Assembly: GCA_029549985.1 (NCBI GenBank)
Contig: JAKPIB010000035.1
Span: forward strand, 29,319 to 93,318
Length of the DNA: 64,000 nt
Reading direction: 5' to 3'
Source: Bacillota bacterium
GTDB taxonomy: Bacteria > Bacillota > Clostridia > Caldicoprobacterales > DTU083
In this document: one piece after another, positions 41,894 to 58,114 of the stretch
How the letters are laid out: the number at the start of each line of letters is the position of its first letter
How positions within the stretch are numbered: the stretch's first letter is position 1
Made by a program: the position numbers and the translations under genes
The notes under the pieces: model-generated
What the model saw: only the letters and a program-made list of their open reading frames with translations
Database searches by the model: none
Told to the model about the DNA's origin: nothing

Positions 41894-43924
41894 ATGAGGC
41901 TTTTTAGATCCTTTGATTCCGATGAAAATAAGCCGAAGATTTCGTCAGAACCTGTTTCCAAACCCAAACCCAAACCCAAATATACCTTTCTGGTCGTTGA
42001 CGATTCCAAATTTTCGCGGGGCATTTTGACTGATATATTGAAGAATGAAGGCTATACGATAGTCGGTGAAGCAAATGACGGTTATGAAGCTATTGATATG
42101 GTAAAAGAAAAAAGCCCGTCTTTTGTTTTTATGGATATAACCATGCCAAAAATGGACGGTCTTACAGCTGTCAAGGAGATCCTGAAGATCAATCCAAATA
42201 TCAACATCATCATGTGCTCAGCTCTCAGCCAGAAGAGAGTGATCGTAGAAGCTATCAAAGCCGGTGCCAAGGATTTCGTTATAAAGCCCTATAAGAAAGA
42301 GAATATACTCAATGTAGTCAATGTACACATGGAAGCCGATAAAAAAGGCCAAGTCATACCATTCAGGAGTGAAAATCATATCAAGAAAACCAAAGACAGC
42401 CGGTACGAATCTGAAGCAGAAAGCGACGCTTTATTGTTGGATGATGAGGCTCTGTCCAGAGAGGTTGACCTGATTTTTGACAGCTATGCCAAGGAAAACG
42501 AAAAGCACCAGGGTGAACAGCCCGGACAGCCAAAATTTAAAGTAGTCAAGCCTGAAAAGGAAGAGCTCAAACCTATCAGCGAGTCGAATTCTGATGCCAC
42601 TAAAGCCCGTCCGGGTGAATCGAAGAATGCTGATTCGCTTTTGGACGAGTTCGAACGTTTCCTGCAGACATTCAGTTCATACAGCTCAAGCATCGTAGAC
42701 ACGGACGAAGAAGCTGCACCTGAAAGCACAGATGATTCTGAATTGCTCACAGATGAAGAATATCCGGATCTTGTAATGGCGGACTTAGAAGATATTCCTG
42801 CAAATGACGGATATAAGGGATCATATCTGGATGAATATGCTGATTTTATAGATGAGGAGACAGCGAATGATGAAGCACCTGATCTTATGTCGGATGAGAC
42901 AGACATAGGATCCGGCGATCAGGATGAGTTTAATGCATCTGAGCGATCACCTGCAGGTGAAGCATCTTACACCAATGAGCCTTATATCAATGATACATAT
43001 GCCACTAATGACACAGATGAGACCTTCGAAGATAAGGAAGCCAATCCGGATGATACCGCATTCAGCACAGGGTCATATCAAGAGCTATCAGTAGATGACG
43101 GGCAGTATGGTGAAGCAGCTCCGACCAGGGAAGGACTTTTTACGGAAGATGTAACAGCAGATGAAGAACTTTATACGAACGAGACATGGGCTCAAGCAGA
43201 GCAATATGCTGGCAAGATGGCAACAGGAGAAGAACTGGAAGATGAAAAAGAAGCAAATCCCGCTATCTCAGCAGATGGTGATGTAGCGGATGAAAGCCAG
43301 GAGTTAACTGAGCTTGTTGCCCCAGAGCATGGCGAAGATGGGAAATCCGATGCAGATAAAGATCTGTCCATATACGAGGCAAGTGAAGCAGCTATGGTTG
43401 AAGAGGCTGCCGAAGATCAGCCTGATATGGGTTCAAACAGTATACCTGAAGCGGCAGAGTTGTCTGATTTCGGCCTGCCCAAGAAGATATTGCCGGACAG
43501 GCCTGTACACACATATGCAAGCAGGTTTGGCGGCAACAACCAACTAGTGGAGCTGAATCAGACAAGAGGTATCAAGGTCAGCCGTGTTGCTGCAACAAGG
43601 CTGATAATGAGCAATGATGAAAGCAAAAACGATCCTGATCTGGATCTTGATTTGTTGTACAGCATAGCTTGCGCATATATATCCCCCGAAAGTAAGCCTG
43701 GTAAGGATGAAACAAAATGGAACGGACATACGGTGCACAGGAGCATCAAAAATATTTCCGGTCTTGCCCTCATTAACAGGCAACAGGCCAGGTCGATCTC
43801 AATGCTGGATCTTATTAGAAATGACAGATCGGACAAAAAACATGCAAACGATGAGGAAGTCCTGTTAAAGGCCATAGCAGATCTGGTAAGGAAAAAAAGC
43901 GAACGCGTCTTAAGCAGCGAATAA
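41894..43924 (+). CDS. CheY-type receiver domain protein with long polyacidic low-complexity region and unassigned C-terminal domain
   Basis: 676 aa with RBS AAGGAG 8 nt upstream. Receiver hallmarks DD36-37, D81 (FVFMDITMP), S109 and K131-P. Residues about 150-530 are D/E/T/S-rich. The last 140 aa or so have ordinary composition and no motif I recognise. Confidence 0.85.
   Translation: MRLFRSFDSDENKPKISSEPVSKPKPKPKYTFLVVDDSKFSRGILTDILKNEGYTIVGEANDGYEAIDMVKEKSPSFVFMDITMPKMDGLTAVKEILKINPNINIIMCSALSQKRVIVEAIKAGAKDFVIKPYKKENILNVVNVHMEADKKGQVIPFRSENHIKKTKDSRYESEAESDALLLDDEALSREVDLIFDSYAKENEKHQGEQPGQPKFKVVKPEKEELKPISESNSDATKARPGESKNADSLLDEFERFLQTFSSYSSSIVDTDEEAAPESTDDSELLTDEEYPDLVMADLEDIPANDGYKGSYLDEYADFIDEETANDEAPDLMSDETDIGSGDQDEFNASERSPAGEASYTNEPYINDTYATNDTDETFEDKEANPDDTAFSTGSYQELSVDDGQYGEAAPTREGLFTEDVTADEELYTNETWAQAEQYAGKMATGEELEDEKEANPAISADGDVADESQELTELVAPEHGEDGKSDADKDLSIYEASEAAMVEEAAEDQPDMGSNSIPEAAELSDFGLPKKILPDRPVHTYASRFGGNNQLVELNQTRGIKVSRVAATRLIMSNDESKNDPDLDLDLLYSIACAYISPESKPGKDETKWNGHTVHRSIKNISGLALINRQQARSISMLDLIRNDRSDKKHANDEEVLLKAIADLVRKKSERVLSSE
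41960..41980 (+). repeat. hexanucleotide tandem repeat (AAACCC)x3.5
   Basis: aaacccaaacccaaacccaaa, encoding KPKPKPK just ahead of the receiver domain. Confidence 0.9.
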
Positions 43925-43979
43925 ACATATGCTTACAGGCGCACCTTATTTAACCACGTGATAACAGGAGGACAAGCAA

Positions 43980-44936
43980 ATGAGCAAATTTACCGTGAAC
44001 AAGACCTTGTTTGAGGGGCTGGCACAATATTTTGATGAAAAAAACAGCATATCTCCCTTTGCACTTCAACCGGATAAGAATTTGTCTTCAGAAGAGATAG
44101 ATTATCTAAAGGAGACCGGCATATTGGGCAATGACGGCAGCATTGTCCGGTCTTTGCATGATATGCTGACAGTGGTAGCCAAGCCAGCCGCCGCAGTGAA
44201 CCTGCTTCTGACTGGCGGAGCCGGCTTGTACAAGCATAGCTTATACTATGACGCCACATACACCAAGTGCATATATGCTACCTATATGACTGATGATATA
44301 GTAGTTACCGACGAAGAGAGCCCGGACAGCTTAATGGATACCATAGCCAAGTTTATTGGAAAAAGCAACTTGAAAAGTCTTGATTTCAACCACGACTTCG
44401 ATATCGAAGAAGCGCTTGTCATAGCAGCGATAATAGACCTTGAAAGAAAGCTTTGCCTAAGAGCATTGATAGATGAAATCCCCTACGACCAAAACCTGTA
44501 CGGCTACAATAAGATTTGGAGGACTATAAACAGCACGAGTTCAAGCATTCAATGGTTTGTACATATCATCAATCAAGTGATAGGAGAGTATACAAACCTA
44601 AGCTACAAGCAAGTGCAGGACGCACTGGAAAGGCTTGTGCCGTTAGGGCTGTTGAGCCAGAAGAACGGCCTGTATCAGTTATCGGATGAACTGGTTTTCC
44701 TGGCCAATAGGATGCTCATCAATGACAACATAGTTTCAGTTTCAGCATTGAAGCAATGGGGCAATGGGATCATATCCTCCGGCTTTACAAGTGTCCAGGC
44801 CGGTATCCATGATATATTGTATCTTGACTACAATGGTGACACCATAAAGTTCAAAACCATGTCCAGCGATGAGCTGTTGGAAAGCATTGACTTTTTCATT
44901 AACAATAAGGAGTATTTCAGCAAATTGACAGCATAA
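43980..44936 (+). CDS. hypothetical protein, no recognisable family
   Basis: 318 aa with RBS AGGAGG 8 nt upstream. Soluble-looking. Possible winged-helix-like segment (YKQVQDALERLVPLGLLSQKNGLYQLSDE). Only 25 nt upstream of pilB. Confidence 0.75.
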   Translation: MSKFTVNKTLFEGLAQYFDEKNSISPFALQPDKNLSSEEIDYLKETGILGNDGSIVRSLHDMLTVVAKPAAAVNLLLTGGAGLYKHSLYYDATYTKCIYATYMTDDIVVTDEESPDSLMDTIAKFIGKSNLKSLDFNHDFDIEEALVIAAIIDLERKLCLRALIDEIPYDQNLYGYNKIWRTINSTSSSIQWFVHIINQVIGEYTNLSYKQVQDALERLVPLGLLSQKNGLYQLSDELVFLANRMLINDNIVSVSALKQWGNGIISSGFTSVQAGIHDILYLDYNGDTIKFKTMSSDELLESIDFFINNKEYFSKLTA

Positions 44937-44961: not shown

Positions 44962-46650
44962 GTGTGGGATACGTCTAGAAAAAGAAAAAAGCTGGGTGAT
45001 TTTCTGCTGGAATCCGGTATCATAGACGAGGTACAGCTGGCAAAGGCCTTGCATATTCAAAAGGAACAGGGCGGACGGCTCGGTACGATCCTGGTGAAAA
45101 ACAACTTCGTAGATGAGCGGCAACTATTAGAGGTATTGGAGTTCCGGCTGGGCATTCCCTTTATAGATCTTCACAATATAGAAATCAGCCCTGATATGCA
45201 GAAGCTGGTTCCATATCAGATTGCTGAAAAATATAAGGTAGTACCGGTCAAAATCGAGAATGGCATGCTGTATGTTGCAATGGAGGACCCACTTGATTTT
45301 ATCGCTATCGAGGACCTCAAACTCGTGGCAAAAATGGAGATCGCTCCTGTATTATCCTATGTTGACTCTATCACTTCAGCGATCAACCAGCTGTACGGCA
45401 GCGAAGAGGCAGACAAGGCCATAAAGGAATTCCAGCAGGAATCCGGGATACAGTCTGCTGAAAGCACGGCAAGTGAGCAGCAGCTTGAGGTTGACAGCGC
45501 ACCAATTGTCAGGCTGGTCCATACTATGATTGAGCAAGCGGTGCTGGAAGGAACCAGCGATATCCACATAGAGCCAATGGAGAACGAGGTGAGGGTCCGT
45601 TACAGGATCGACGGCAAGCTGCAGCTCTTTCAAACCATACCTAAGAATGCTCATTCTGCAGTGATTACTCGTATAAAGATAATGTCGGGTCTGAACATTG
45701 CAGAGAAAAGGATCCCACAGGACGGCAGGTGTGATCTGACGGTCAGGGACAAGCAGCTCAACCTTCGTGTGTCTACACTGCCTACAGTCCATGGAGAAAA
45801 AGTTGTAATCAGGATCCTGGACAAGTCCAACTTCCTGATCCCAAAGGAAAAGCTGGGCTTTACCAAGGAGAACCTTGAGAAATTCGACAGACTGCTTATG
45901 AACCCTCATGGGATAATCCTTATAACAGGCCCGACCGGAAGCGGCAAATCAACGACCCTATATACTATGCTGAGCGAGCTCAACAAGATATCAGAGAACA
46001 TAGTTACAGTAGAGGACCCGGTCGAATACCTGATACCGGGCCTGAATCAGGTGCAGGTCAATGTCAAGGCAGGCCTTACCTTTGCAAGCGCGCTCAGATC
46101 ATTCTTAAGGCAAGACCCTGATATTATCATGCTGGGAGAGATCAGGGATTCGGAGACCGCAGATATAGCTATGAGGGCTGCCATAACCGGCCACCTTGTA
46201 TTGAGCACCTTGCATACCAATGATGCTGTCAGCTCCATATCAAGGCTGATCGATATGGGCATAGAGCCGTTCATGGTTGCCGTATCACTTGTGGGTGTCA
46301 TATCCCAAAGGCTGGTGAGAAAGCTCTGCCCGAGATGTGCAGTGGATTACAAACCGCCAGCCCATGAACTCAAACTGCTGGGAGTGGACAAGGAGGACCA
46401 GGTGTACAAAAAGCCGGTGGGCTGCAGCTACTGCAATAACACAGGCTATAAGGGCAGATTGGCTGTCCACGAGGTCCTGGTCATAAACAATGGCCACAGG
46501 GAAATGATAGCCAAAAATGCCTCAGTAAGCGATCTTACTGAGTATTCAATTAAGACAGGAATGACCACGCTAAAGCAGGAATGCATCAAACTACTTGAAA
46601 ACGGCACTACTTCTGTCAGTGAAGTATTGAGTGTAGCATACTCACAATAA
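44962..46650 (+). CDS. pilB: type IV pilus assembly ATPase PilB (GspE family)
   Basis: N-terminal MshEN/GSPII_E_N domain. Walker A GPTGSGKST, Asp and His boxes, and a tetracysteine CPRC...CSYC. Confidence 0.93.
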   Translation: MWDTSRKRKKLGDFLLESGIIDEVQLAKALHIQKEQGGRLGTILVKNNFVDERQLLEVLEFRLGIPFIDLHNIEISPDMQKLVPYQIAEKYKVVPVKIENGMLYVAMEDPLDFIAIEDLKLVAKMEIAPVLSYVDSITSAINQLYGSEEADKAIKEFQQESGIQSAESTASEQQLEVDSAPIVRLVHTMIEQAVLEGTSDIHIEPMENEVRVRYRIDGKLQLFQTIPKNAHSAVITRIKIMSGLNIAEKRIPQDGRCDLTVRDKQLNLRVSTLPTVHGEKVVIRILDKSNFLIPKEKLGFTKENLEKFDRLLMNPHGIILITGPTGSGKSTTLYTMLSELNKISENIVTVEDPVEYLIPGLNQVQVNVKAGLTFASALRSFLRQDPDIIMLGEIRDSETADIAMRAAITGHLVLSTLHTNDAVSSISRLIDMGIEPFMVAVSLVGVISQRLVRKLCPRCAVDYKPPAHELKLLGVDKEDQVYKKPVGCSYCNNTGYKGRLAVHEVLVINNGHREMIAKNASVSDLTEYSIKTGMTTLKQECIKLLENGTTSVSEVLSVAYSQ

Positions 46651-46670: not shown

Positions 46671-47723
46671 ATGAATCTCTACGAAATACTGAAGACTGCA
46701 TCGGATCTAAAAGCTTCTGACATACACATAACTGTTGGTGTGCCATGTACATACCGGATACACGGCAAGCTCGTACACATAGATGACAAGATCCTCCTGC
46801 CTGATGATACAAAGACGCTCGTCAGGGAGCTGTGCAATGAAGCCCAGTTCGGCCTGCTGACTAAAAAGGGAGAAGTGGACTTTTCATTTTCGATGCCCGG
46901 ACTTCAGCGATTCAGGGTAAATGCCTACAAGCAGCGCAACAGCTATAGCGCTGCCTTGAGGCTTGTAAACTCGAAGATCCCGCCTTTTGAGGAGCTCGGC
47001 CTGCCTTCAGTGGTAAGAGAGCTGACTCACCTCAGCAGGGGGATAATCCTGGTGACAGGGCCTACTGGCAGCGGGAAGTCGACTACCCTGGCCAGCATGA
47101 TAGATTACATCAACAACAACTGGGACAAGCATATTATAACCATCGAGGATCCGATCGAGTATCTGCACAGGCATAAAAAGAGCATCGTTAACCAAAGAGA
47201 GGTCGGCAGTGACACGAAGAGCTTTGCCAATGCCTTGCGCGCAGCCTTGCGCCAGGACCCTGACATCATACTGATAGGCGAGATGAGGGACCTGGAGACC
47301 ATAGCCACAGCGCTTACCGCGGCCGAGACCGGCCACCTTGTGCTTAGCACGCTTCATACGGTGGGTGCTACCAAAACGATCGACAGGATCATTGACGCCT
47401 TTCCGCCCCACCAGCAGCAGCAGGTAAGGGTACAGCTCTCTATGCTGCTGCAAGGCGTTATATCGCAGCAGCTTATTACTAGAAGAGATGGAAAAGGCCG
47501 TGTTGCTGCTGTTGAAACGATGGTTGTCAATGCCGCAATAAGAAATATCATACGCGAGGCAAAGATACACCAGATCAACAATGTCATCCAAACAAGCGCT
47601 AGCAAGGGGATGAAGCTTATGGATGATGCTATTATCGAGCTGTACAATAAGCAGCTGATTTCAAGAGAAGATGCCCTTATGCACTGCGTAGATCCGGAAT
47701 ATATGAGAAAAAGCCTGTTCTAA
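46671..47723 (+). CDS. pilT: type IV pilus retraction ATPase PilT
   Basis: 350 aa. SDIHI motif, Walker A GPTGSGKST, GHLVLSTLHT, and AIRNIIREAK (PilT-specific AIRNLIRE motif). Confidence 0.93.
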   Translation: MNLYEILKTASDLKASDIHITVGVPCTYRIHGKLVHIDDKILLPDDTKTLVRELCNEAQFGLLTKKGEVDFSFSMPGLQRFRVNAYKQRNSYSAALRLVNSKIPPFEELGLPSVVRELTHLSRGIILVTGPTGSGKSTTLASMIDYINNNWDKHIITIEDPIEYLHRHKKSIVNQREVGSDTKSFANALRAALRQDPDIILIGEMRDLETIATALTAAETGHLVLSTLHTVGATKTIDRIIDAFPPHQQQQVRVQLSMLLQGVISQQLITRRDGKGRVAAVETMVVNAAIRNIIREAKIHQINNVIQTSASKGMKLMDDAIIELYNKQLISREDALMHCVDPEYMRKSLF

Positions 47724-47734
47724 TATGAAAGAGG

Positions 47735-48952
47735 GTGGTTATCATTCCTAAGTACCAGTATAAAGCTGTGAATATGTCAGGCAGGGTCATAGAAGGAGTG
47801 TATGAAGCTATAAATAAAGACGCTGTCGTTGACATGATAAGACAGAAAAACTTCTTTCAGCTGGAAATAAAAGAGCTGCCGAGCCAGAAGGACATAAATG
47901 ATCTATCTTTCCTATCGAAGATCGGCAGTAAGGATATTTCACTGTTCTGTAAGCAGTTTGCCGCCATCCTTAGGGCAGGCGTACCTTTGGTACAAGGGCT
48001 CAATATGTTGAGCCAGCAGACAGAGAATAAAAAGCTGAAGAGTATACTTTCAAATATATATGAGGTCGTTCAGAAGGGCAACAGCCTATCCGATGCCATG
48101 CGACTGCATGAGAAAAAGCTGCCTGCCATGCTGATAAACATGATAGAGGCCGGCGAGGTCAGCGGTACTTTGGATGAGACCCTTGAAACGATGGCTGTTC
48201 ATTATGAAAAGGACTATAAGATGAAGGCAAAAGTAAAGGGTGCGATGACATACCCGATCGTTGTCCTTGTTATAGCAATAGCTGTCGTAATATTGATGCT
48301 GACCGCAGTTGTGCCTATGTTCATAGGCCTGTTTGAAAACAGCGGAGCACCGCTGCCCGGTCCGACAAAGCTGCTGATAGGGATGAGCGAAGGCCTCAAG
48401 GCCAACGGACTTGTATACCTGCTCTTTATAGTGATCGCTGGTATTCTTATAAAGATCTATCTTTCAACGGAAAACGGAAAGGCAGTATTCCACAGACTCC
48501 TGTTACAGGCGCCGCTCGTCGGCAAGCTTCAGGTCAAGGTATTCACAGCAAGGCTCGCAAGGACCCTTGGTACCTTGATGAGGACCGGTGTAGACATAAC
48601 CAAATCCATAAACCTGGCATCCAGGACGATATCAAATGTCATCGTCCAAAAAGGATTGTTTGAGGTAGAAGCCCAGGTCAATCAGGGAAAAAGCCTGTAC
48701 GAACCGATCAAGGCCCTTAAGATCTTTCCGGTGATGCTGGAAAACATGGTCATGCTGGGTGAAGAATCCGGTACCCTGGAAGATATGCTTATAAAGACGG
48801 CTGATTTCTATGAGGAAGAAGTGGACAGGGAGATACAAAAGCTGACCTCGCTTATGGAGCCTGCGATAATCGTCGTCCTAGGTGGGATGATCGCCTTCAT
48901 TGTACTTTCCATAATGCTGCCGATGTTCGAAATGATGAAATATGTAGCATAA
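47735..48952 (+). CDS. pilC: type IV pilus platform protein PilC (GspF family)
   Basis: 405 aa. Two T2SF repeats and three TM segments. The start codon (GTG 47735) is uncertain. Confidence 0.92.
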   Translation: MVIIPKYQYKAVNMSGRVIEGVYEAINKDAVVDMIRQKNFFQLEIKELPSQKDINDLSFLSKIGSKDISLFCKQFAAILRAGVPLVQGLNMLSQQTENKKLKSILSNIYEVVQKGNSLSDAMRLHEKKLPAMLINMIEAGEVSGTLDETLETMAVHYEKDYKMKAKVKGAMTYPIVVLVIAIAVVILMLTAVVPMFIGLFENSGAPLPGPTKLLIGMSEGLKANGLVYLLFIVIAGILIKIYLSTENGKAVFHRLLLQAPLVGKLQVKVFTARLARTLGTLMRTGVDITKSINLASRTISNVIVQKGLFEVEAQVNQGKSLYEPIKALKIFPVMLENMVMLGEESGTLEDMLIKTADFYEEEVDREIQKLTSLMEPAIIVVLGGMIAFIVLSIMLPMFEMMKYVA

Positions 48953-49052
48953 ATTATAAAATATTTTGCATGCCTATGCAGGATTTAGCTTCATGAAGTC
49001 GAATATAAAAAATAATATAATTTTACAATATTTTATAGAAGGAGTGTTAAAA

Positions 49053-49430
49053 GTGATAAATAGAAAGAAAAAGAATCAAAAAGGATTTACCTTAGTCGAA
49101 CTCATCGTAGTAATCGCCATATTAGGTATTCTTGCAGCTATCGCTATACCGGCATTCGGAGGATTCACGAAATCAGCCAATATCAGAGCTATCGAATCAG
49201 AGCACAGGATGCTGATCGGCGCCATCCAGATGTGGCAAGCCAACCAGGACAACGTAAGTACATTCCCACCGAACCTGGAAGCGTTAGATGAATATGTAGA
49301 CGGTGGTATTGCTAAAATCGAAGCAAGGATGCAAGCTGATGGTGAAAACAAGGCTCATGATATTACTCCACAAGGAAAACTGATATCCAAGTATGATGAT
49401 GCAAATGTCTGGATCTATCCTAGCCACTAA
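49053..49430 (+). CDS. pilA: major type IV pilin
   Basis: ORF 48966..49430. GTG 49053 follows GAAGGAG. Class III signal MINRKKKNQKG|FTLVELIVVIAILGILAAIAIP with Glu at +5. The mature protein is about 114 aa and has no Cys. Confidence 0.88.
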   Translation: MINRKKKNQKGFTLVELIVVIAILGILAAIAIPAFGGFTKSANIRAIESEHRMLIGAIQMWQANQDNVSTFPPNLEALDEYVDGGIAKIEARMQADGENKAHDITPQGKLISKYDDANVWIYPSH

Positions 49431-49448
49431 AATATTCTAAAAAATATA

Positions 49449-49478
49449 ATAGAGCGAGGAAACTCGCTCTATTCTTTT
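49449..49478 (+). terminator. strong intrinsic terminator after pilA
   Basis: ATAGAGCGAG-gaaa-CTCGCTCTAT (10 bp, GNRA-type loop) followed by TCTTTT. Confidence 0.8.
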
Positions 49479-49506: not shown

Positions 49507-50763
49507 ATGGGCAAAAATAAAGTCAGTACATTGTTGATAGCAATCATCTGCATAACTCCATTAGTATTCATACCGTTTACTTTATATTTTAAGCAGCTAG
49601 GTATCATCATAGTTGATTTTTTCATGCTGCCCAAGCTGCTGTTTGTGGCTTTATGCGCTTTTATAATACTGATAATGCTGGCATATTGCAAAGATAGCCC
49701 AGAGGCTCCAAAGGAAAAGCTCACAGAATATCTGATGGGGCTCTATTTGCTCCTCGTAGCCGTATCGACAGTACTTTCGATAGATCCGTACCTGTCATTG
49801 GTAGGAGCCATGTTTTACAACGAGGGACTGTTGACGATCCTTTTGTATGCTTTTTTATTTATGGCAGCAAAGCGCTGTTATTCACATGCAGACCGGCATT
49901 CAGCGATGATGACCGCCTTCTCTTCCTTGATAGGCCTATATGGCATGCTGCAATTCCTGGGGTATGATCTGACTATAACTGAAATGACCGGAAAAGTATA
50001 TGCCACTTTCAGAAACCCGAATTACTTTGGAGCTTATCTGGTGTTGATGCTACCTGTGAGTATATTTGCCTACCTGAGGACTTCTAGAAAGATAGTCCTG
50101 CCTGCTGTAGCCATCTTGTATTTCTGTTTACTGTGTACCAATACCAGGGGTTCATGGTTAGGCTTTTTGGTCTCTGTTCTTGTTTTCCTGTATTATTCCA
50201 TTAGACTCAAGTACCAGACCAGAAGACTGTTAACGGTTTTTGCTGTTCTTGCAATGGTTACGGCAGTCTATATCCTGATAGTCAACAGACAGCTGATAGA
50301 ACGCTTTGCTTCAATATTCATAGAGTTCAAAAATGTTGTCACTCTGTCTGAAAACTATGAATCAGGCGGAAGCAAAAGGATATTTATATGGAAATGCGCT
50401 TTGCAGATCATCAGGGAACACCCATTCTTCGGGACCGGACCCGAAACCTTCAGCAAAGTGATATATAGTAGATTCTCACTCCATTTCTTCAAGGCCCATA
50501 ATGAGTACCTCAATATCGCGCAGTCATCAGGGATCCCGGCCCTTATAGTCTATGCTGCCTGGCTGGCTGATGTTATACGCAATGGCATTAAGGGTATCAG
50601 AAAAAACATATACATATTGCCCTATTTGGCAAGCGTGACAGGATATGCCGTCCAGGCCTTTTTCAATGTCAGTATAGTTGCAGTAGCGTATATATTTTGG
50701 ATATTCAGTGGTATTCTTGTAAGCACGGGCACAGACATTAATTCAAAATATAGTAATTATTGA
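49507..50763 (+). CDS. Wzy_C / O-antigen-ligase-family polytopic membrane protein (candidate pilin glycosyltransferase)
   Basis: 418 aa with about 10-12 TM segments. Family-typical blocks NPNYFGAYL, TNTRGSWLGF, and HPFFGTGPETF...KAHNEYLNIAQSSGIPAL. Confidence 0.8.
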   Translation: MGKNKVSTLLIAIICITPLVFIPFTLYFKQLGIIIVDFFMLPKLLFVALCAFIILIMLAYCKDSPEAPKEKLTEYLMGLYLLLVAVSTVLSIDPYLSLVGAMFYNEGLLTILLYAFLFMAAKRCYSHADRHSAMMTAFSSLIGLYGMLQFLGYDLTITEMTGKVYATFRNPNYFGAYLVLMLPVSIFAYLRTSRKIVLPAVAILYFCLLCTNTRGSWLGFLVSVLVFLYYSIRLKYQTRRLLTVFAVLAMVTAVYILIVNRQLIERFASIFIEFKNVVTLSENYESGGSKRIFIWKCALQIIREHPFFGTGPETFSKVIYSRFSLHFFKAHNEYLNIAQSSGIPALIVYAAWLADVIRNGIKGIRKNIYILPYLASVTGYAVQAFFNVSIVAVAYIFWIFSGILVSTGTDINSKYSNY

Positions 50764-50902: not shown

Positions 50903-51418
50903 GTGAGGTTTTTATTGTTTTATATGTATAGGTGTTGTAAAATCATATCGAAAAGCAAAAATGGCTTTACTTTGCTGGAGTTGTTGATCGTTATTACTGT
51001 TATCGGTATACTTGCATCACTGGCCATACCTAATATAATCAAAATCGCGGATGATTACAGGCTTAATGAAGCGGCCAAGGAGATTGCCAGAGAGATAATA
51101 AACACCCAGCAGTTAGCGATGTACTATGGAATAGATATGCAATTTGAGATAGACATCTATAATAATCAGTATTCGGTCAGGACCAGGGGTACCCCTTCAA
51201 AGCTGTTTAAAAGAGGACAATTGGATAGAAGTATGACTATTGCCACCAATCTCTACAATCCTGGTTACAGTGGGAGCTATAAAGGGATACGTACCCTATA
51301 CTATTCGCCGAGCGGGATGCCGTCCAGAACCGGAACGATTTGGTTATATAGCGAAACAGGCGGCTATAAAAGGATTACTATAGCTGTCGGTACCGGAAGG
51401 GTGAAAATATGGGACTGA
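50903..51418 (+). CDS. minor pilin, GspH/FimT-like
   Basis: Prepilin signal ..SKSKNG|FTLLELLIVITVIGILASLAIP. Start could be GTG 50903, TTG 50915 or ATG 50924. C terminus is GspH-like (TIWLYSE..ITIAVGTGRV). Confidence 0.8.
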   Translation: MRFLLFYMYRCCKIISKSKNGFTLLELLIVITVIGILASLAIPNIIKIADDYRLNEAAKEIAREIINTQQLAMYYGIDMQFEIDIYNNQYSVRTRGTPSKLFKRGQLDRSMTIATNLYNPGYSGSYKGIRTLYYSPSGMPSRTGTIWLYSETGGYKRITIAVGTGRVKIWD

Positions 51419-52233
51419 AACGCTTAAGTGTTCTAAAGGATGACAAGGCCGGGTCTATTCTGCTGGAAGTAGTAATATCACTGATTTTGATTTCCTTGCT
51501 GGCTTTAACATTCATGTCCATGTACGTTTTCGCCTCGCGGGTGAATGCCAGATCGCAGAGAGTAACAGATACCACATATGCTGCCCAGAATATGTTGGAA
51601 GAGCTGTACAGCCTGAGCGTGAACCAGTCCTTCGATGAATCACTCAATGAACTCAGAAGTATAATCTCCTCATGCCAAGTTACCCAGGAATCGCCAGATC
51701 TTTACAAGGTCACCGGGGAATATGGCAAATACGGTGTAGAGATAACCTTGCAAAAAATCAGAGACAACATGTACAACTCCATAGTCAAGGCTTATACTCT
51801 GTCTTCGAGTCTCCATCAGGAGACGACGATGCAAAACCTCTTCATCTGGAATACAGAGGCCGATAGCGGCGAAGATGAAAATGAAAACGGCGGAGACACA
51901 GGGGGCGGAGATACAGGTGATGAAGAGGATGAGGATGAAGGAGACGAGGATGATAACGGACCCGAACAAGAATTAAAAATAGTTGACATTAAACGGATAG
52001 ATACCTATGAACAAGGCAATAAAGTCAGGTTCAATATAAGAATATACCTGAGCAACGGTGCTGAGCATGATCATAACAACAAGCAGGAGTTCGAGTTCAA
52101 GAAAAACCAGAACAAAACTGAATACACACAAGGCACTATACAACTTGGCTCAGGCTATATAGATTACGAAATAAAGATAATAGTGAAAAATGGTTCGATA
52201 GATCTTGAATTAGTTCATCAGACTTCGCGCTAA
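51409..52233 (+). CDS. minor pilin-like protein with polyacidic linker and extra C-terminal domain
   Basis: Signal MGLKRLSVLKDDKAG|SILLEVVISLILISLLALTF with Glu at +5. Acidic tract EADSGEDENENGGDTGGGDTGDEEDEDEGDEDDNGPEQ, followed by about 90 aa of beta-rich sequence. Confidence 0.7.
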   Translation: MGLKRLSVLKDDKAGSILLEVVISLILISLLALTFMSMYVFASRVNARSQRVTDTTYAAQNMLEELYSLSVNQSFDESLNELRSIISSCQVTQESPDLYKVTGEYGKYGVEITLQKIRDNMYNSIVKAYTLSSSLHQETTMQNLFIWNTEADSGEDENENGGDTGGGDTGDEEDEDEGDEDDNGPEQELKIVDIKRIDTYEQGNKVRFNIRIYLSNGAEHDHNNKQEFEFKKNQNKTEYTQGTIQLGSGYIDYEIKIIVKNGSIDLELVHQTSR

Positions 52234-56516: not shown

Positions 56517-57356
56517 ATGGATATTTCGCCCTTGACGAAGATAGTAGGGGTCATTGGACACCCGATAGGACATAGCCTGTCTCCCAGGCTTCACAACAAC
56601 TTTTACAAAAAGCTGAAGCTTGATATAGCATACCTGGCTTTTGACGTCAAGCCGGCCGAGCTGGAAAAGGCTGTACGAGGGATGGCTGCTCTCGGTTTCA
56701 TAGGTTTCAATGTGACAATACCCCACAAGGAATCCATGCTGAACCTGGTTGATGAAGTGGAACCAGGCGCACAGCTGGTAGGAGCGATCAATACCGTCAA
56801 GATAGCTGACGGAAAGCTGATAGGCCACAACACCGATGGCCAGGGCTTTATGGAGTCCCTTAAGCGAAATGATGTAAACATACGGGACAGACATATAGTA
56901 GTCCTTGGAGCCGGAGGCGCTGCAAGGGCTGTAAGTATTGCTGTAGCAGCTGATGGTCCGAAAAGGATGACTATCGTCAACAGGACCTTTGAGCGGGGAA
57001 GGCATCTGGCATTTTCAATAAACGATAAAATAGGCAAAAGGCTTGCGAAGGCAGCATCAGAAATACCCCGTGATGCCGATATTATAATAAATACCACTTC
57101 CCTTGGCATGTGGCCTGATGTCCATGCCAGTCCTATTACCGGATACAGCTTAAGGGCAGATACTGTAGTATGTGATATAGTGTACAACCCTAGAAAGACC
57201 TTGATGCTGAAGCAGGCTGAAGCCATGGGCTGCAAAACTGTAGACGGCATTGGTATGCTGATCGGCCAGGCTTTGCGCTCAATAGAGATATGGACGGATA
57301 CAAAGCTTGACAGCGGAGCATGGAATACGATGCAGGAGGAAATAGAGCATATATGA
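56517..57356 (+). CDS. aroE: shikimate dehydrogenase
   Basis: GVIGHPIGHSLSPRLHN, NVTIPHK, NTDG and GAGGAARA motifs. Confidence 0.93.
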   Translation: MDISPLTKIVGVIGHPIGHSLSPRLHNNFYKKLKLDIAYLAFDVKPAELEKAVRGMAALGFIGFNVTIPHKESMLNLVDEVEPGAQLVGAINTVKIADGKLIGHNTDGQGFMESLKRNDVNIRDRHIVVLGAGGAARAVSIAVAADGPKRMTIVNRTFERGRHLAFSINDKIGKRLAKAASEIPRDADIIINTTSLGMWPDVHASPITGYSLRADTVVCDIVYNPRKTLMLKQAEAMGCKTVDGIGMLIGQALRSIEIWTDTKLDSGAWNTMQEEIEHI

Positions 57357-58114
57357 TAGGAGCCTTGGTATTTTTGCTGGGATTGTTCATTGGAAGCTTT
57401 TTCAATGTATGCATCTACCGTATCCCATATGAACGATCCATAGTATTCCCGCCGTCCCACTGCCCATCCTGCAGTCACAGACTTGGAACCTTGGATCTTA
57501 TCCCAGTTTTCAGTTATTTGCTTTTAAAGGGCAAATGCCGTTATTGCGGCAGCAGGATCTCGGTACAGTACCCGCTGATAGAGCTCTTGACCGGGGGAGT
57601 TTTTCTTTACTTATATTTGCATTTTGGCCTGACCTGGCAGCTGTTGACAAGCATAGTTCTGGTATCCCTGCTATTGATCATGACAGTCATTGATATCAAG
57701 CATATGATAATACCAGATGAGCTTGTTGCTTTCGGTATTGTTTCAGCGTTCATATTCCAGATAGCCGGGATTTCCCAGATCGGATACTTAAGTGCCATTT
57801 ACGGAACCCTGCTTGGCGGCGGAGTGTTTTTGCTCATAGCCCTGTTTTCAATGCTGGTGCTGAAGAAAGAAGGTATGGGCGGCGGTGATATCAAGCTTAT
57901 GGCTATGATAGGGGCGCTGACAGGGTGGAAAGCGACTCTGCTGTCAATGGTGCTATCGGTCTATTTAGGAGGCTTGTTGGGTGGTATTTTACTACTTTTA
58001 AAGGTAAAAAGGCGAGGCGATTACATACCCTATGGGCCATTTATAGCTATGGCAGCGGTGATATCCCTTTTATGGGGAGATAATATCATAAGCTGGTGGC
58101 TGGCCTTATTCTAG
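57353..58114 (+). CDS. pilD: prepilin peptidase / N-methyltransferase (A24 family)
   Basis: ORF 57320..58114. ATG 57353 overlaps the aroE TGA. N-terminal CPSC...CRYC motif, polytopic, catalytic-Asp motif GGGDIKL. Confidence 0.92.
   Translation: MIGALVFLLGLFIGSFFNVCIYRIPYERSIVFPPSHCPSCSHRLGTLDLIPVFSYLLLKGKCRYCGSRISVQYPLIELLTGGVFLYLYLHFGLTWQLLTSIVLVSLLLIMTVIDIKHMIIPDELVAFGIVSAFIFQIAGISQIGYLSAIYGTLLGGGVFLLIALFSMLVLKKEGMGGGDIKLMAMIGALTGWKATLLSMVLSVYLGGLLGGILLLLKVKRRGDYIPYGPFIAMAAVISLLWGDNIISWWLALF

Follow-up and report, generated by a model that had tools for sequence, protein, structure and literature searches.

The window analysed here is a stretch of 64,000 nucleotides from a Bacillota bacterium of the class Clostridia (assembly GCA_029549985.1, contig JAKPIB010000035.1, positions 29,319 to 93,318), and this account concerns a gene within it for a 318-amino-acid protein of predicted EspG fold, which lies between the gene for a CheY-like receiver protein and the type IV pilus gene pilB. 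The gene runs on the forward strand from ATG 43980 to TAA 44936 (318 codons), and direct reading of the sequence places a Shine-Dalgarno AGGAGG at 43966-43971 on the same strand, with the ATG 8 nt further on. It begins 55 nt after the stop codon of the receiver gene and ends 25 nt from the GTG start codon of pilB at 44962. We conclude that the protein probably serves the pilus as an accessory or regulatory adaptor of a kind not described before.

That the open reading frame (ORF) is a genuine protein-coding gene follows from its conservation. Sixteen close homologues of 317-321 amino acids leave 53 positions (of 318) invariant, and comparison with the closest of them (87% amino acid identity, 80% nucleotide identity) gives a ratio of non-synonymous to synonymous substitution (dN/dS) of 0.048, as expected under strong purifying selection. 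The product is acidic, with an isoelectric point (pI) of 4.67 and 42 Asp/Glu against 26 Lys/Arg residues. Its highest 19-residue Kyte-Doolittle mean, 1.54, indicates that there is no membrane-spanning segment, and on inspection the N-terminus is not of the signal peptide type. The protein is soluble and cytoplasmic. An earlier note on this DNA, made from the letters alone, had described the same ORF, ribosome binding site and spacing and the same lack of membrane segment and signal peptide, all of which our sequence reading and hydropathy analysis bear out.

Upstream, on the same strand, the receiver gene (41894-43924; 676 amino acids; Pfam Response_reg, E = 5.5e-30) is the first gene of a conserved block. 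Downstream, also on the forward strand, are pilB (44962-46650), which encodes a GspE-family assembly ATPase with an MshEN N-terminal region (Pfam T2SSE, E = 2.7e-137; MshEN, E = 7e-20), a gene for a pilT-type retraction ATPase (46671-47723; Pfam T2SSE), pilC for the platform protein (47735-48952; Pfam T2SSF), and the gene for the major pilin with its N_methyl prepilin motif (48966-49430; Pfam N_methyl). A terminator-like hairpin with an 11-bp stem follows the pilin gene on the same strand (49448-49473). It is the clearest hairpin between 41500 and 49600, and probably marks the 3′ end, or an attenuator, of a unit that runs from the receiver gene to the pilin gene. The same scan found no terminator-like site in any of the gaps between those two genes, and only weak forward-strand candidates with 5-bp stems inside the receiver gene (43631) and pilB (46176). 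The pilus cluster extends as far as a prepilin peptidase gene (57320-58114), and the operon encodes several minor pilins in addition to the major one.

To assess how far this arrangement is conserved, we assembled 29 loci that carry the short form of the gene (314-331 amino acids) from exact-protein look-ups, GTDB genomes and JGI/ENA metagenomes; the GTDB loci were recovered by a search with a 5-sequence alignment, and genes in the loci were annotated by comparison with the pilus proteins of the window. At about 90% identity the loci fall into 15 distinct lineages, plus the window, and they belong to Lachnospiraceae-like Bacillota; the named lineages are Anaerocolumna, Herbinix, Lachnospiraceae and "Bacillota" metagenome-assembled genomes (MAGs). 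In all 29, pilB comes directly downstream, with pilT, pilC and a pilin gene after it where the contig continues, and a CheY-like receiver gene precedes the EspG-like gene in every locus whose contig reaches that far. Beyond the receiver the genes vary by lineage and include asparaginase, aconitase, prepilin peptidase and comM, the last being the case in the window; since these more distant upstream genes differ, we take the conserved block to start at the receiver gene. The number and order of pilin genes also differ among loci. In short, the EspG-like gene is co-linear and co-oriented with pilB, pilT and pilC across lineages with differing flanks, which is the pattern of a member of the pilus operon. 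The earlier note had suggested checking whether homologues always neighbour GspE-family ATPases, and for the short form they do; more distant relatives, from archaea, Chloroflexota and other Clostridia, show no such linkage to pilus genes. It had also argued from the 25-nt gap for stoichiometric co-expression with PilB. The distance is correct and co-transcription is supported, but stoichiometry is not implied, as the corresponding gap in homologous loci ranges from -4 to 204 nt according to the ORF caller and is often 17-75 nt or a 4-nt overlap. The largest values probably reflect pilB starts called too far downstream.

Searches with the single protein against Pfam, NCBIfam, PHROGs and PADLOC gave no match above threshold, and a sequence search of the PDB gave 0 matches. 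Neither Pfam nor NCBIfam showed a PilZ, GGDEF/EAL, PilM_2, PilN or PilO domain at E ≤ 1, or any other pilus domain, in agreement with the earlier note on the lack of PilZ, PilM, PilN and PilO-type motifs. We see a different picture from structure. An AlphaFold2 model built from a 16-sequence alignment had a mean predicted local distance difference test score (pLDDT) of 87.4, a predicted template modelling score (pTM) of 0.81 and 0 residues with a pLDDT below 50. The model comprises two similar halves, each a four-stranded β-meander followed by a helix (residues 71-126 and 251-308), connected by a helical region that holds a helix-helix-hairpin element (residues 192-234). The N-terminal subdomain (residues 1-126; 43980-44357, forward strand), in which helices precede the first β-meander and its helix, is delimited by the modelled secondary structure and aligns by sequence profile to EspG1 and EspG3. 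The C-terminal subdomain (residues 251-315; 44730-44924, forward strand), with the second β-meander and helix, is delimited by the model and carries the family motif GF(T/S).Q.G.HD. In the model the two form the quasi-two-fold repeat typical of EspG. A Foldseek search of the PDB returned 18 matches at E ≤ 0.001, all of them mycobacterial EspG1, EspG3 or EspG5, which are chaperones of type VII secretion (E = 3e-10 to 5e-7, probability 1.0, template modelling (TM) scores of 0.35-0.53 normalised to the query and up to 0.60 to the target), whereas the first match of any other kind was at E = 0.014. The three-dimensional fold, as predicted, is that of EspG.

Sequence comparison within the wider family points the same way. 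A word-indexed profile search with a broad alignment returned almost only close homologues, and it was exhaustive phmmer that revealed a wide family: 296 representative clusters reached E ≤ 1e-3 and 153 of these E ≤ 1e-10, most of them with 310-450 amino acids and 20-30% identity, and G275 is almost invariant throughout. Of 40 diverse members, each searched separately against Pfam, 4 matched PF14011 (ESX-1_EspG) at E ≤ 0.01, the best at E = 3e-6, all below the gathering score. One of these relatives, P0075, reached 25.9 bits against a cut-off of 27, with residues 30-108 aligned in register to positions 30-110 of the model. A single member of the 40, P0116, matched DUF5081 (PF16887), likewise in register, at E = 0.0027 and 17.3 bits (cut-off 27); the esaD-type toxin cluster that, with a sequence match, identifies a DUF5081 protein is not present. 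A profile of the 40 sequences aligned to EspG1 (E = 0.0049) and EspG3 (E = 0.0085), covering the N-terminal subdomain (profile positions 34-132; structures 5vba and 4l4w). On the strength of the Foldseek matches, the PF14011 and DUF5081 matches of relatives and the family-profile alignments, we would place the protein by remote homology in a distant, previously unannotated branch of the EspG/EsaE superfamily, rather than as a strict member of PF14011. The profile and structure searches that the earlier note recommended thus yielded 18 EspG structures and a set of sub-threshold EspG matches. Its description of a protein of no recognisable family holds for sequence searches, in which nothing exceeded threshold, and is superseded by the combined structural and profile evidence.

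The protein encoded upstream is itself unusual. Its REC domain (residues 33-142; 41990-42319, forward strand; Pfam Response_reg) has CheY receivers as its top NCBIfam matches, along with CheB receivers, and the phospho-acceptor set D36, D37, D81 and K131 is invariant in 8 orthologues. The domain is followed on the same strand by an acidic low-complexity linker of about 385 amino acids (approximately residues 151-535; 42344-43498; 28% Asp/Glu) and by a small C-terminal domain of about 140 amino acids (approximately residues 536-676; 43499-43921) recognised by its conserved motifs. Both the length and the sequence of the linker vary widely between lineages, such that whole proteins range from 516 to 760 amino acids; such variability and acidity are unusual for a CheY-like protein. 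The C-terminal motifs F.YLW.NRF, AY....NR and L..AI..LVQ.K..R.LG are kept in 14 orthologues, and for this domain we obtained no Pfam match and no relatives in a profile search. In one locus (L048:6001-7782, P0020, from MAG GCA_012518395.1) a 593-amino-acid ORF fuses the receiver and acidic linker to the EspG-like residues of about 107-315. This ORF overlaps pilB by 8 nt, and the order pilB-pilT-pilC follows.

Relatives outside the pilus clade occur in quite different settings, and we found no pilus or T7SS (type VII secretion system) genes in the examined loci of the zinc-ribbon, 313-314-amino-acid and FHA forms. Forms with one to five C-terminal zinc ribbons are found in Methanomicrobiales archaea, Clostridia, Pelotomaculum and Chloroflexota. 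They lie at the end of a cassette conserved among these groups (L008-L014, L021-L023 and L041-L043; for example L011:1661-9161) that encodes, in order, an ATP-binding cassette transporter (binding protein, permease of about 540 amino acids, ATPase), a Reg_prop β-propeller, a membrane protein and the EspG-like protein. The membrane protein has multiple transmembrane segments, a coiled coil and a conserved C-terminal domain with the motif 'GADxGVDxLAxVTGPxGxxIKxxY'. A second form, of 313-314 amino acids (L044:4601-8942, L045, L049:3519-7850 and L050), follows an unknown gene of 254-291 codons, a radical-SAM/SPASM gene and a gene for a protein of 477-504 amino acids, which has an N-terminal transmembrane segment, a long coiled coil and the same 'VTGP' C-terminal domain. 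A third form joins the EspG-like core to an FHA domain and, at the C-terminus, a zinc ribbon (P0048 at L046:8001-9617, P0082, P0108 and P0126), with one example lying among the rpsB-tsf-pyrH and pheST housekeeping genes. What the zinc-ribbon, 313-amino-acid and pilus forms have in common is that the EspG-like gene comes directly after a gene for a protein in which a long linker, charged or coiled-coil, connects an N-terminal part to a conserved C-terminal domain. From this shared architecture, and by analogy with EspG and PE-PPE, the product of the upstream gene is likely to be the client of the EspG-like protein.

EspG-type proteins use a helical region to hold a specific client, which they deliver or target to a secretion ATPase. 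In the reading we favour, a clostridial type IVa pilus operon would have acquired a cytoplasmic adaptor of the EspG/EsaE superfamily. Its client would most likely be the small domain at the C-terminus of the CheY-like receiver encoded upstream, and its delivery target, most likely, the PilB ATPase encoded directly downstream. Receiver and EspG-like protein would then form a two-gene module that ties pilus extension to phosphorylation of the receiver. The kinase would probably be of the CheA type, because the best NCBIfam matches of the receiver domain are CheY and CheB receivers. Thus an EspG-type adaptor would bind the receiver C-terminal domain and couple the CheY-like protein to PilB, with phosphorylation modulating extension; arguing from fold and synteny, we give this proposal slightly less than an even chance. 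The gene, its synteny, its remote sequence homology, the intact phospho-acceptor set and the lack of T7SS genes in the regions surveyed are observations, the EspG-like fold is a prediction, and the binding partners and regulatory outcome we infer. A candidate for a clade-specific partner-binding surface is the stretch of residues 165-192 (DEIPYDQNLYGYNKIWRTINSTSSSIQW; 44472-44555, forward strand), the most conserved in the pilus clade, where 13 of 28 positions are invariant compared with 53 of 318 overall. The earlier note had suggested a partner or adaptor of either the receiver or PilB, which is plausible for a member of the pilus operon with pilB adjacent in 29 of 29 loci, although who binds whom is a matter of inference.

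Several points weigh against this proposal. The TM scores of 0.43-0.60 come with root-mean-square deviations of 7-10 Å, indicating likeness at the level of the fold and not a close relationship. The ESX-1_EspG profile PF14011 gave no match to the protein itself in a Pfam search at E ≤ 1, and therefore no score at or above gathering, so that membership of the superfamily rests on structure prediction together with sub-threshold matches in relatives. A single-sequence model of the receiver C-terminal domain had a pLDDT of 36. We considered whether this domain is homologous to the 'VTGP' domain of the other client candidates and rejected the idea, as hhalign gave a probability of 0.2%; the parallel is one of architecture only. 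The fusion P0020, which comes from one MAG, is missing the receiver C-terminal domain as well as the first third of the EspG-like protein; it may hint at a functional link, but could therefore be a deletion or assembly artefact. Finally, synteny is compatible with the receiver protein, with PilB, or with both as the partner.

The last of these points leads to the alternative that fares best, in which the protein would be a direct cofactor of PilB (or PilT) that stabilises, localises or inhibits the ATPase hexamer independently of the receiver, in functional analogy to PilZ/FimX, or to SgmX acting on PilB, in other phyla. The invariable position of pilB as the next gene, often 17-75 nt away or overlapping by 4 nt, is what such a cofactor would predict. 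EspG and EsaE are thought to bring clients to an ATPase (PMC10765036), and known PilB cofactors are diverse and lineage-specific (PMC11656802). Linkage to the receiver gene is equally strict, however, and among distant relatives it is the gene upstream that is conserved as the partner, with no GspE-type ATPase nearby. We regard a receiver-independent cofactor as unlikely, but as deserving a real share of the probability.

The predicted fold also accommodates a holding chaperone that would cover the hydrophobic helix at the N-terminus of prepilins, or of a large minor pilin or adhesin, before membrane insertion. Prepilins are normally inserted co-translationally, and we know of no pilin chaperone of an EspG-like kind. 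The conserved neighbours are moreover the receiver gene and pilB, while the pilin genes vary in number and order. These observations outweigh, in our view, the presence of a major and several minor pilin genes in the operon and the precedent of EspG, which shields the hydrophobic helical tip of PE-PPE proteins (PMC11217815, PMC12478183), and we consider a pilin chaperone improbable.

The only sequence signal that recurs in the protein is a set of weak winged-helix matches at about residues 202-256, all of them below threshold: HTH_45 (E = 0.031; 14.7 bits against 25.5), Sso10a (E = 0.0045; 17 bits against 60) and the PADLOC model WH_III-A (E = 0.0096). The region overlaps a winged-helix-like element in the AlphaFold2 model (residues 192-236; 44553-44687, forward strand), in which helices at 192-201 and 209-219 precede a β-hairpin with strands at 225-228 and 231-234; the element takes in the segment that the earlier note had picked out as a winged-helix recognition region. 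That part of the suggestion stands, as the element is probably real as a substructure. DNA binding, on the other hand, is unlikely, because the protein is acidic and the segment contains only 3 Lys/Arg residues, against 4 Asp/Glu (segment pI 5.6). Regulation of the pil operon by the protein as a winged-helix transcription factor could explain the matches from three libraries, the helix-helix-hairpin topology and the low-ranking Foldseek matches to CRP/FNR proteins (E = 0.014-0.2). This idea fits poorly with the sub-threshold nature of every such match, with the pI of the whole protein, with a full-length fold match to EspG and not to DNA-binding proteins, and with the occurrence, in varied contexts, of relatives whose core is joined to FHA domains and zinc ribbons. 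We reject a DNA-binding regulator as very unlikely on grounds of charge and global fold, there being neither an above-threshold domain nor a basic surface.

A T7SS locus of the EspG family would be recognised by an EccC/EssC ATPase together with PE/PPE, WXG100 or LXG substrates, a combination that we did not find; neither a gene for an FtsK/EssC-type ATPase nor one for a WXG100 protein was called in the 10-kb flanks of five lineages or among the scanned ORFs of the window, in which the sole ORF of more than 1000 amino acids is SMC. The idea of an ordinary T7SS chaperone that adjoins the pilus genes by chance, for which one might cite the predicted EspG-like fold and a T7SSh variant reported beside Tad pilus genes (PMC11217815), is rejected as having next to no likelihood, given that the order receiver/EspG-like/pilB is kept in 15 lineages with varying flanks and that T7SS genes were not found.

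Some further features of the locus were observed in passing. The GTG at 44962 is supported as the start of pilB because the conserved PilB N-terminus (KKLGDFLLESG..., KKLGDFLLESGIIDEVQLAKAL) begins directly after it. In the window pilB opens with GTG-TGG (44962-44967), and three related lineages have GTG-TGA at the same position (L051:6982-6996, L007 and L025), shortly after the stop codon of the EspG-like gene. In these cases the conserved PilB N-terminus KRRRLGDFLLESG follows in frame and no canonical start codon precedes it, which is why gene callers begin pilB about 160-190 nt late. The GTG-TGA could be a start-stop element, a site where UGA is read through as Trp, or a non-canonical start. 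Residues 9-61 or so of PilB (44986-45144 of the window) contain two copies of a RLGxxLLxxGxIxxxxLxxALxxQ-like motif, which we take to resemble the cyclic di-GMP (c-di-GMP)-binding MshEN motif of MshE and of PilB2 from C. perfringens; if this likeness holds, the PilB of the window may also sense c-di-GMP. Directly past the pilin gene and terminator lies a gene for a Wzy_C/O-antigen-ligase-like membrane protein of 418 amino acids (49507-50763), a candidate pilin glycosylase like TfpO/PilO. The block of minor pilins includes a 274-amino-acid ORF (51409-52233) with an N-terminal hydrophobic segment and a highly acidic stretch rich in Gly, Asp and Glu (GEDENENGGDTGGGDTGDEEDEDEGDEDDNG), which had no Pfam match. 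The other scanned ORFs of the window are housekeeping genes (priA, PASTA kinase, fakA, recG, smc, comM and others).

How Gram-positive bacteria control the extension of their pili is poorly understood, and the known PilB cofactors (PilZ, FimX, SgmX and others) stem from Proteobacteria, Myxococcus and cyanobacteria. If our reading is correct, an EspG-fold protein encoded between a CheY-like gene and pilB would represent a new type of PilB-associated factor, and the proposed route from receiver protein via adaptor to motor makes a directly testable hypothesis. It would also mean that the EspG/EsaE superfamily reaches beyond type VII secretion and into archaea, which are not known to have a T7SS, with a bearing on the evolution of client-specific adaptors for secretion and assembly ATPases. 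A broader generalisation is conceivable but, on balance, doubtful: EspG-type adaptors may not be specific to the T7SS, the present large branch (about 300 clusters at 50% identity), with members in bacteria and methanogenic archaea and frequent fusions to zinc ribbons or FHA domains, pairing with clients encoded upstream. One of its clades would be a new class of PilB cofactor, by which a CheY-like protein that can be phosphorylated and has a giant acidic linker would be physically connected to PilB in Gram-positive anaerobes. No paper that links EspG-like proteins to type IV pili emerged from full-text searches, and a superfamily adaptor in a pilus operon would surprise pilus and T7SS specialists alike.

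The known EspG-fold proteins are EspG (T7SSa), EsaE/YfjC (T7SSb) and TscG/TshG (newer variants), all of them tied to a T7SS and to helical substrates (PMC11217815, PMC10765036, PMC12478183), and EspG and EsaE are client-specific adaptors toward EccC/EssC (PMC10765036, PMC11217815, PMC12478183). With EspG1, EspG3 and EspG5 (PF14011), the 318-amino-acid protein shares the predicted fold of two β-meander-plus-helix subdomains in quasi-two-fold symmetry, and its relatives show remote, in-register sequence likeness to them over the N-terminal subdomain. Both kinds of protein are cytoplasmic, of about 300 amino acids, and encoded beside the genes of a machine that runs on a cytoplasmic ATPase. Unlike them, the protein of the window has no PF14011 match, no T7SS locus and no PE/PPE, WXG100 or LXG client. 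It has instead a winged-helix-like central element, a neighbouring ATPase of the GspE/PilB and not the FtsK/EccC type, and a host among the Bacillota rather than the Actinomycetota.

A further parallel is offered by EsaE, YfjC and TscG/TshG. EsaE, of the DUF5081 family, is a T7SSb chaperone that is EspG-like by AlphaFold prediction (PMC12478183, PMC10765036, PMC11217815), and the whole group resembles our protein in being divergent in sequence and recognised as EspG-like via structure prediction only (PMC10765036, PMC11217815, PMC12478183). All occur in Bacillota, and one relative of the 318-amino-acid protein weakly matches DUF5081. They differ in that their genes lie in T7SS or toxin loci and serve secreted toxins, whereas ours lies in a type IV pilus operon next to a response-regulator-like neighbour.

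On the pilus side, reviews of PilB cofactors cover PilZ, FimX, c-di-GMP binding by MshEN, MglA/SgmX and phage peptides, none of them EspG-like and none of this kind for Gram-positive bacteria (PMC11656802). The 318-amino-acid protein differs from the known PilB regulators in lacking a PilZ, GGDEF/EAL, PATAN or TPR domain and in its EspG-like predicted fold, as well as in a receiver partner with an acidic linker of about 385 amino acids and a novel C-terminal domain, in a Gram-positive system. The logic we propose is nonetheless the same as in PilZ/FimX, PilG/PilH, PixG/PixH, DrdR and SgmX/MglA, where a cytoplasmic accessory protein, a CheY-like protein, or both, control the extension ATPase (PMC11656802, PMC13507683, PMC11181946, PMC7519303). 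CheY-like proteins that act directly on PilB or PilT are known in other phyla (PMC13507683, PMC11181946, PMC11656802). Since receiver-domain proteins act on PilB or PilT in Xanthomonas, Pseudomonas and Synechocystis (PMC13507683, PMC10519157, PMC11181946), the proposed receiver-to-motor logic has precedent, though the parts from which it would be built in these clostridia differ.

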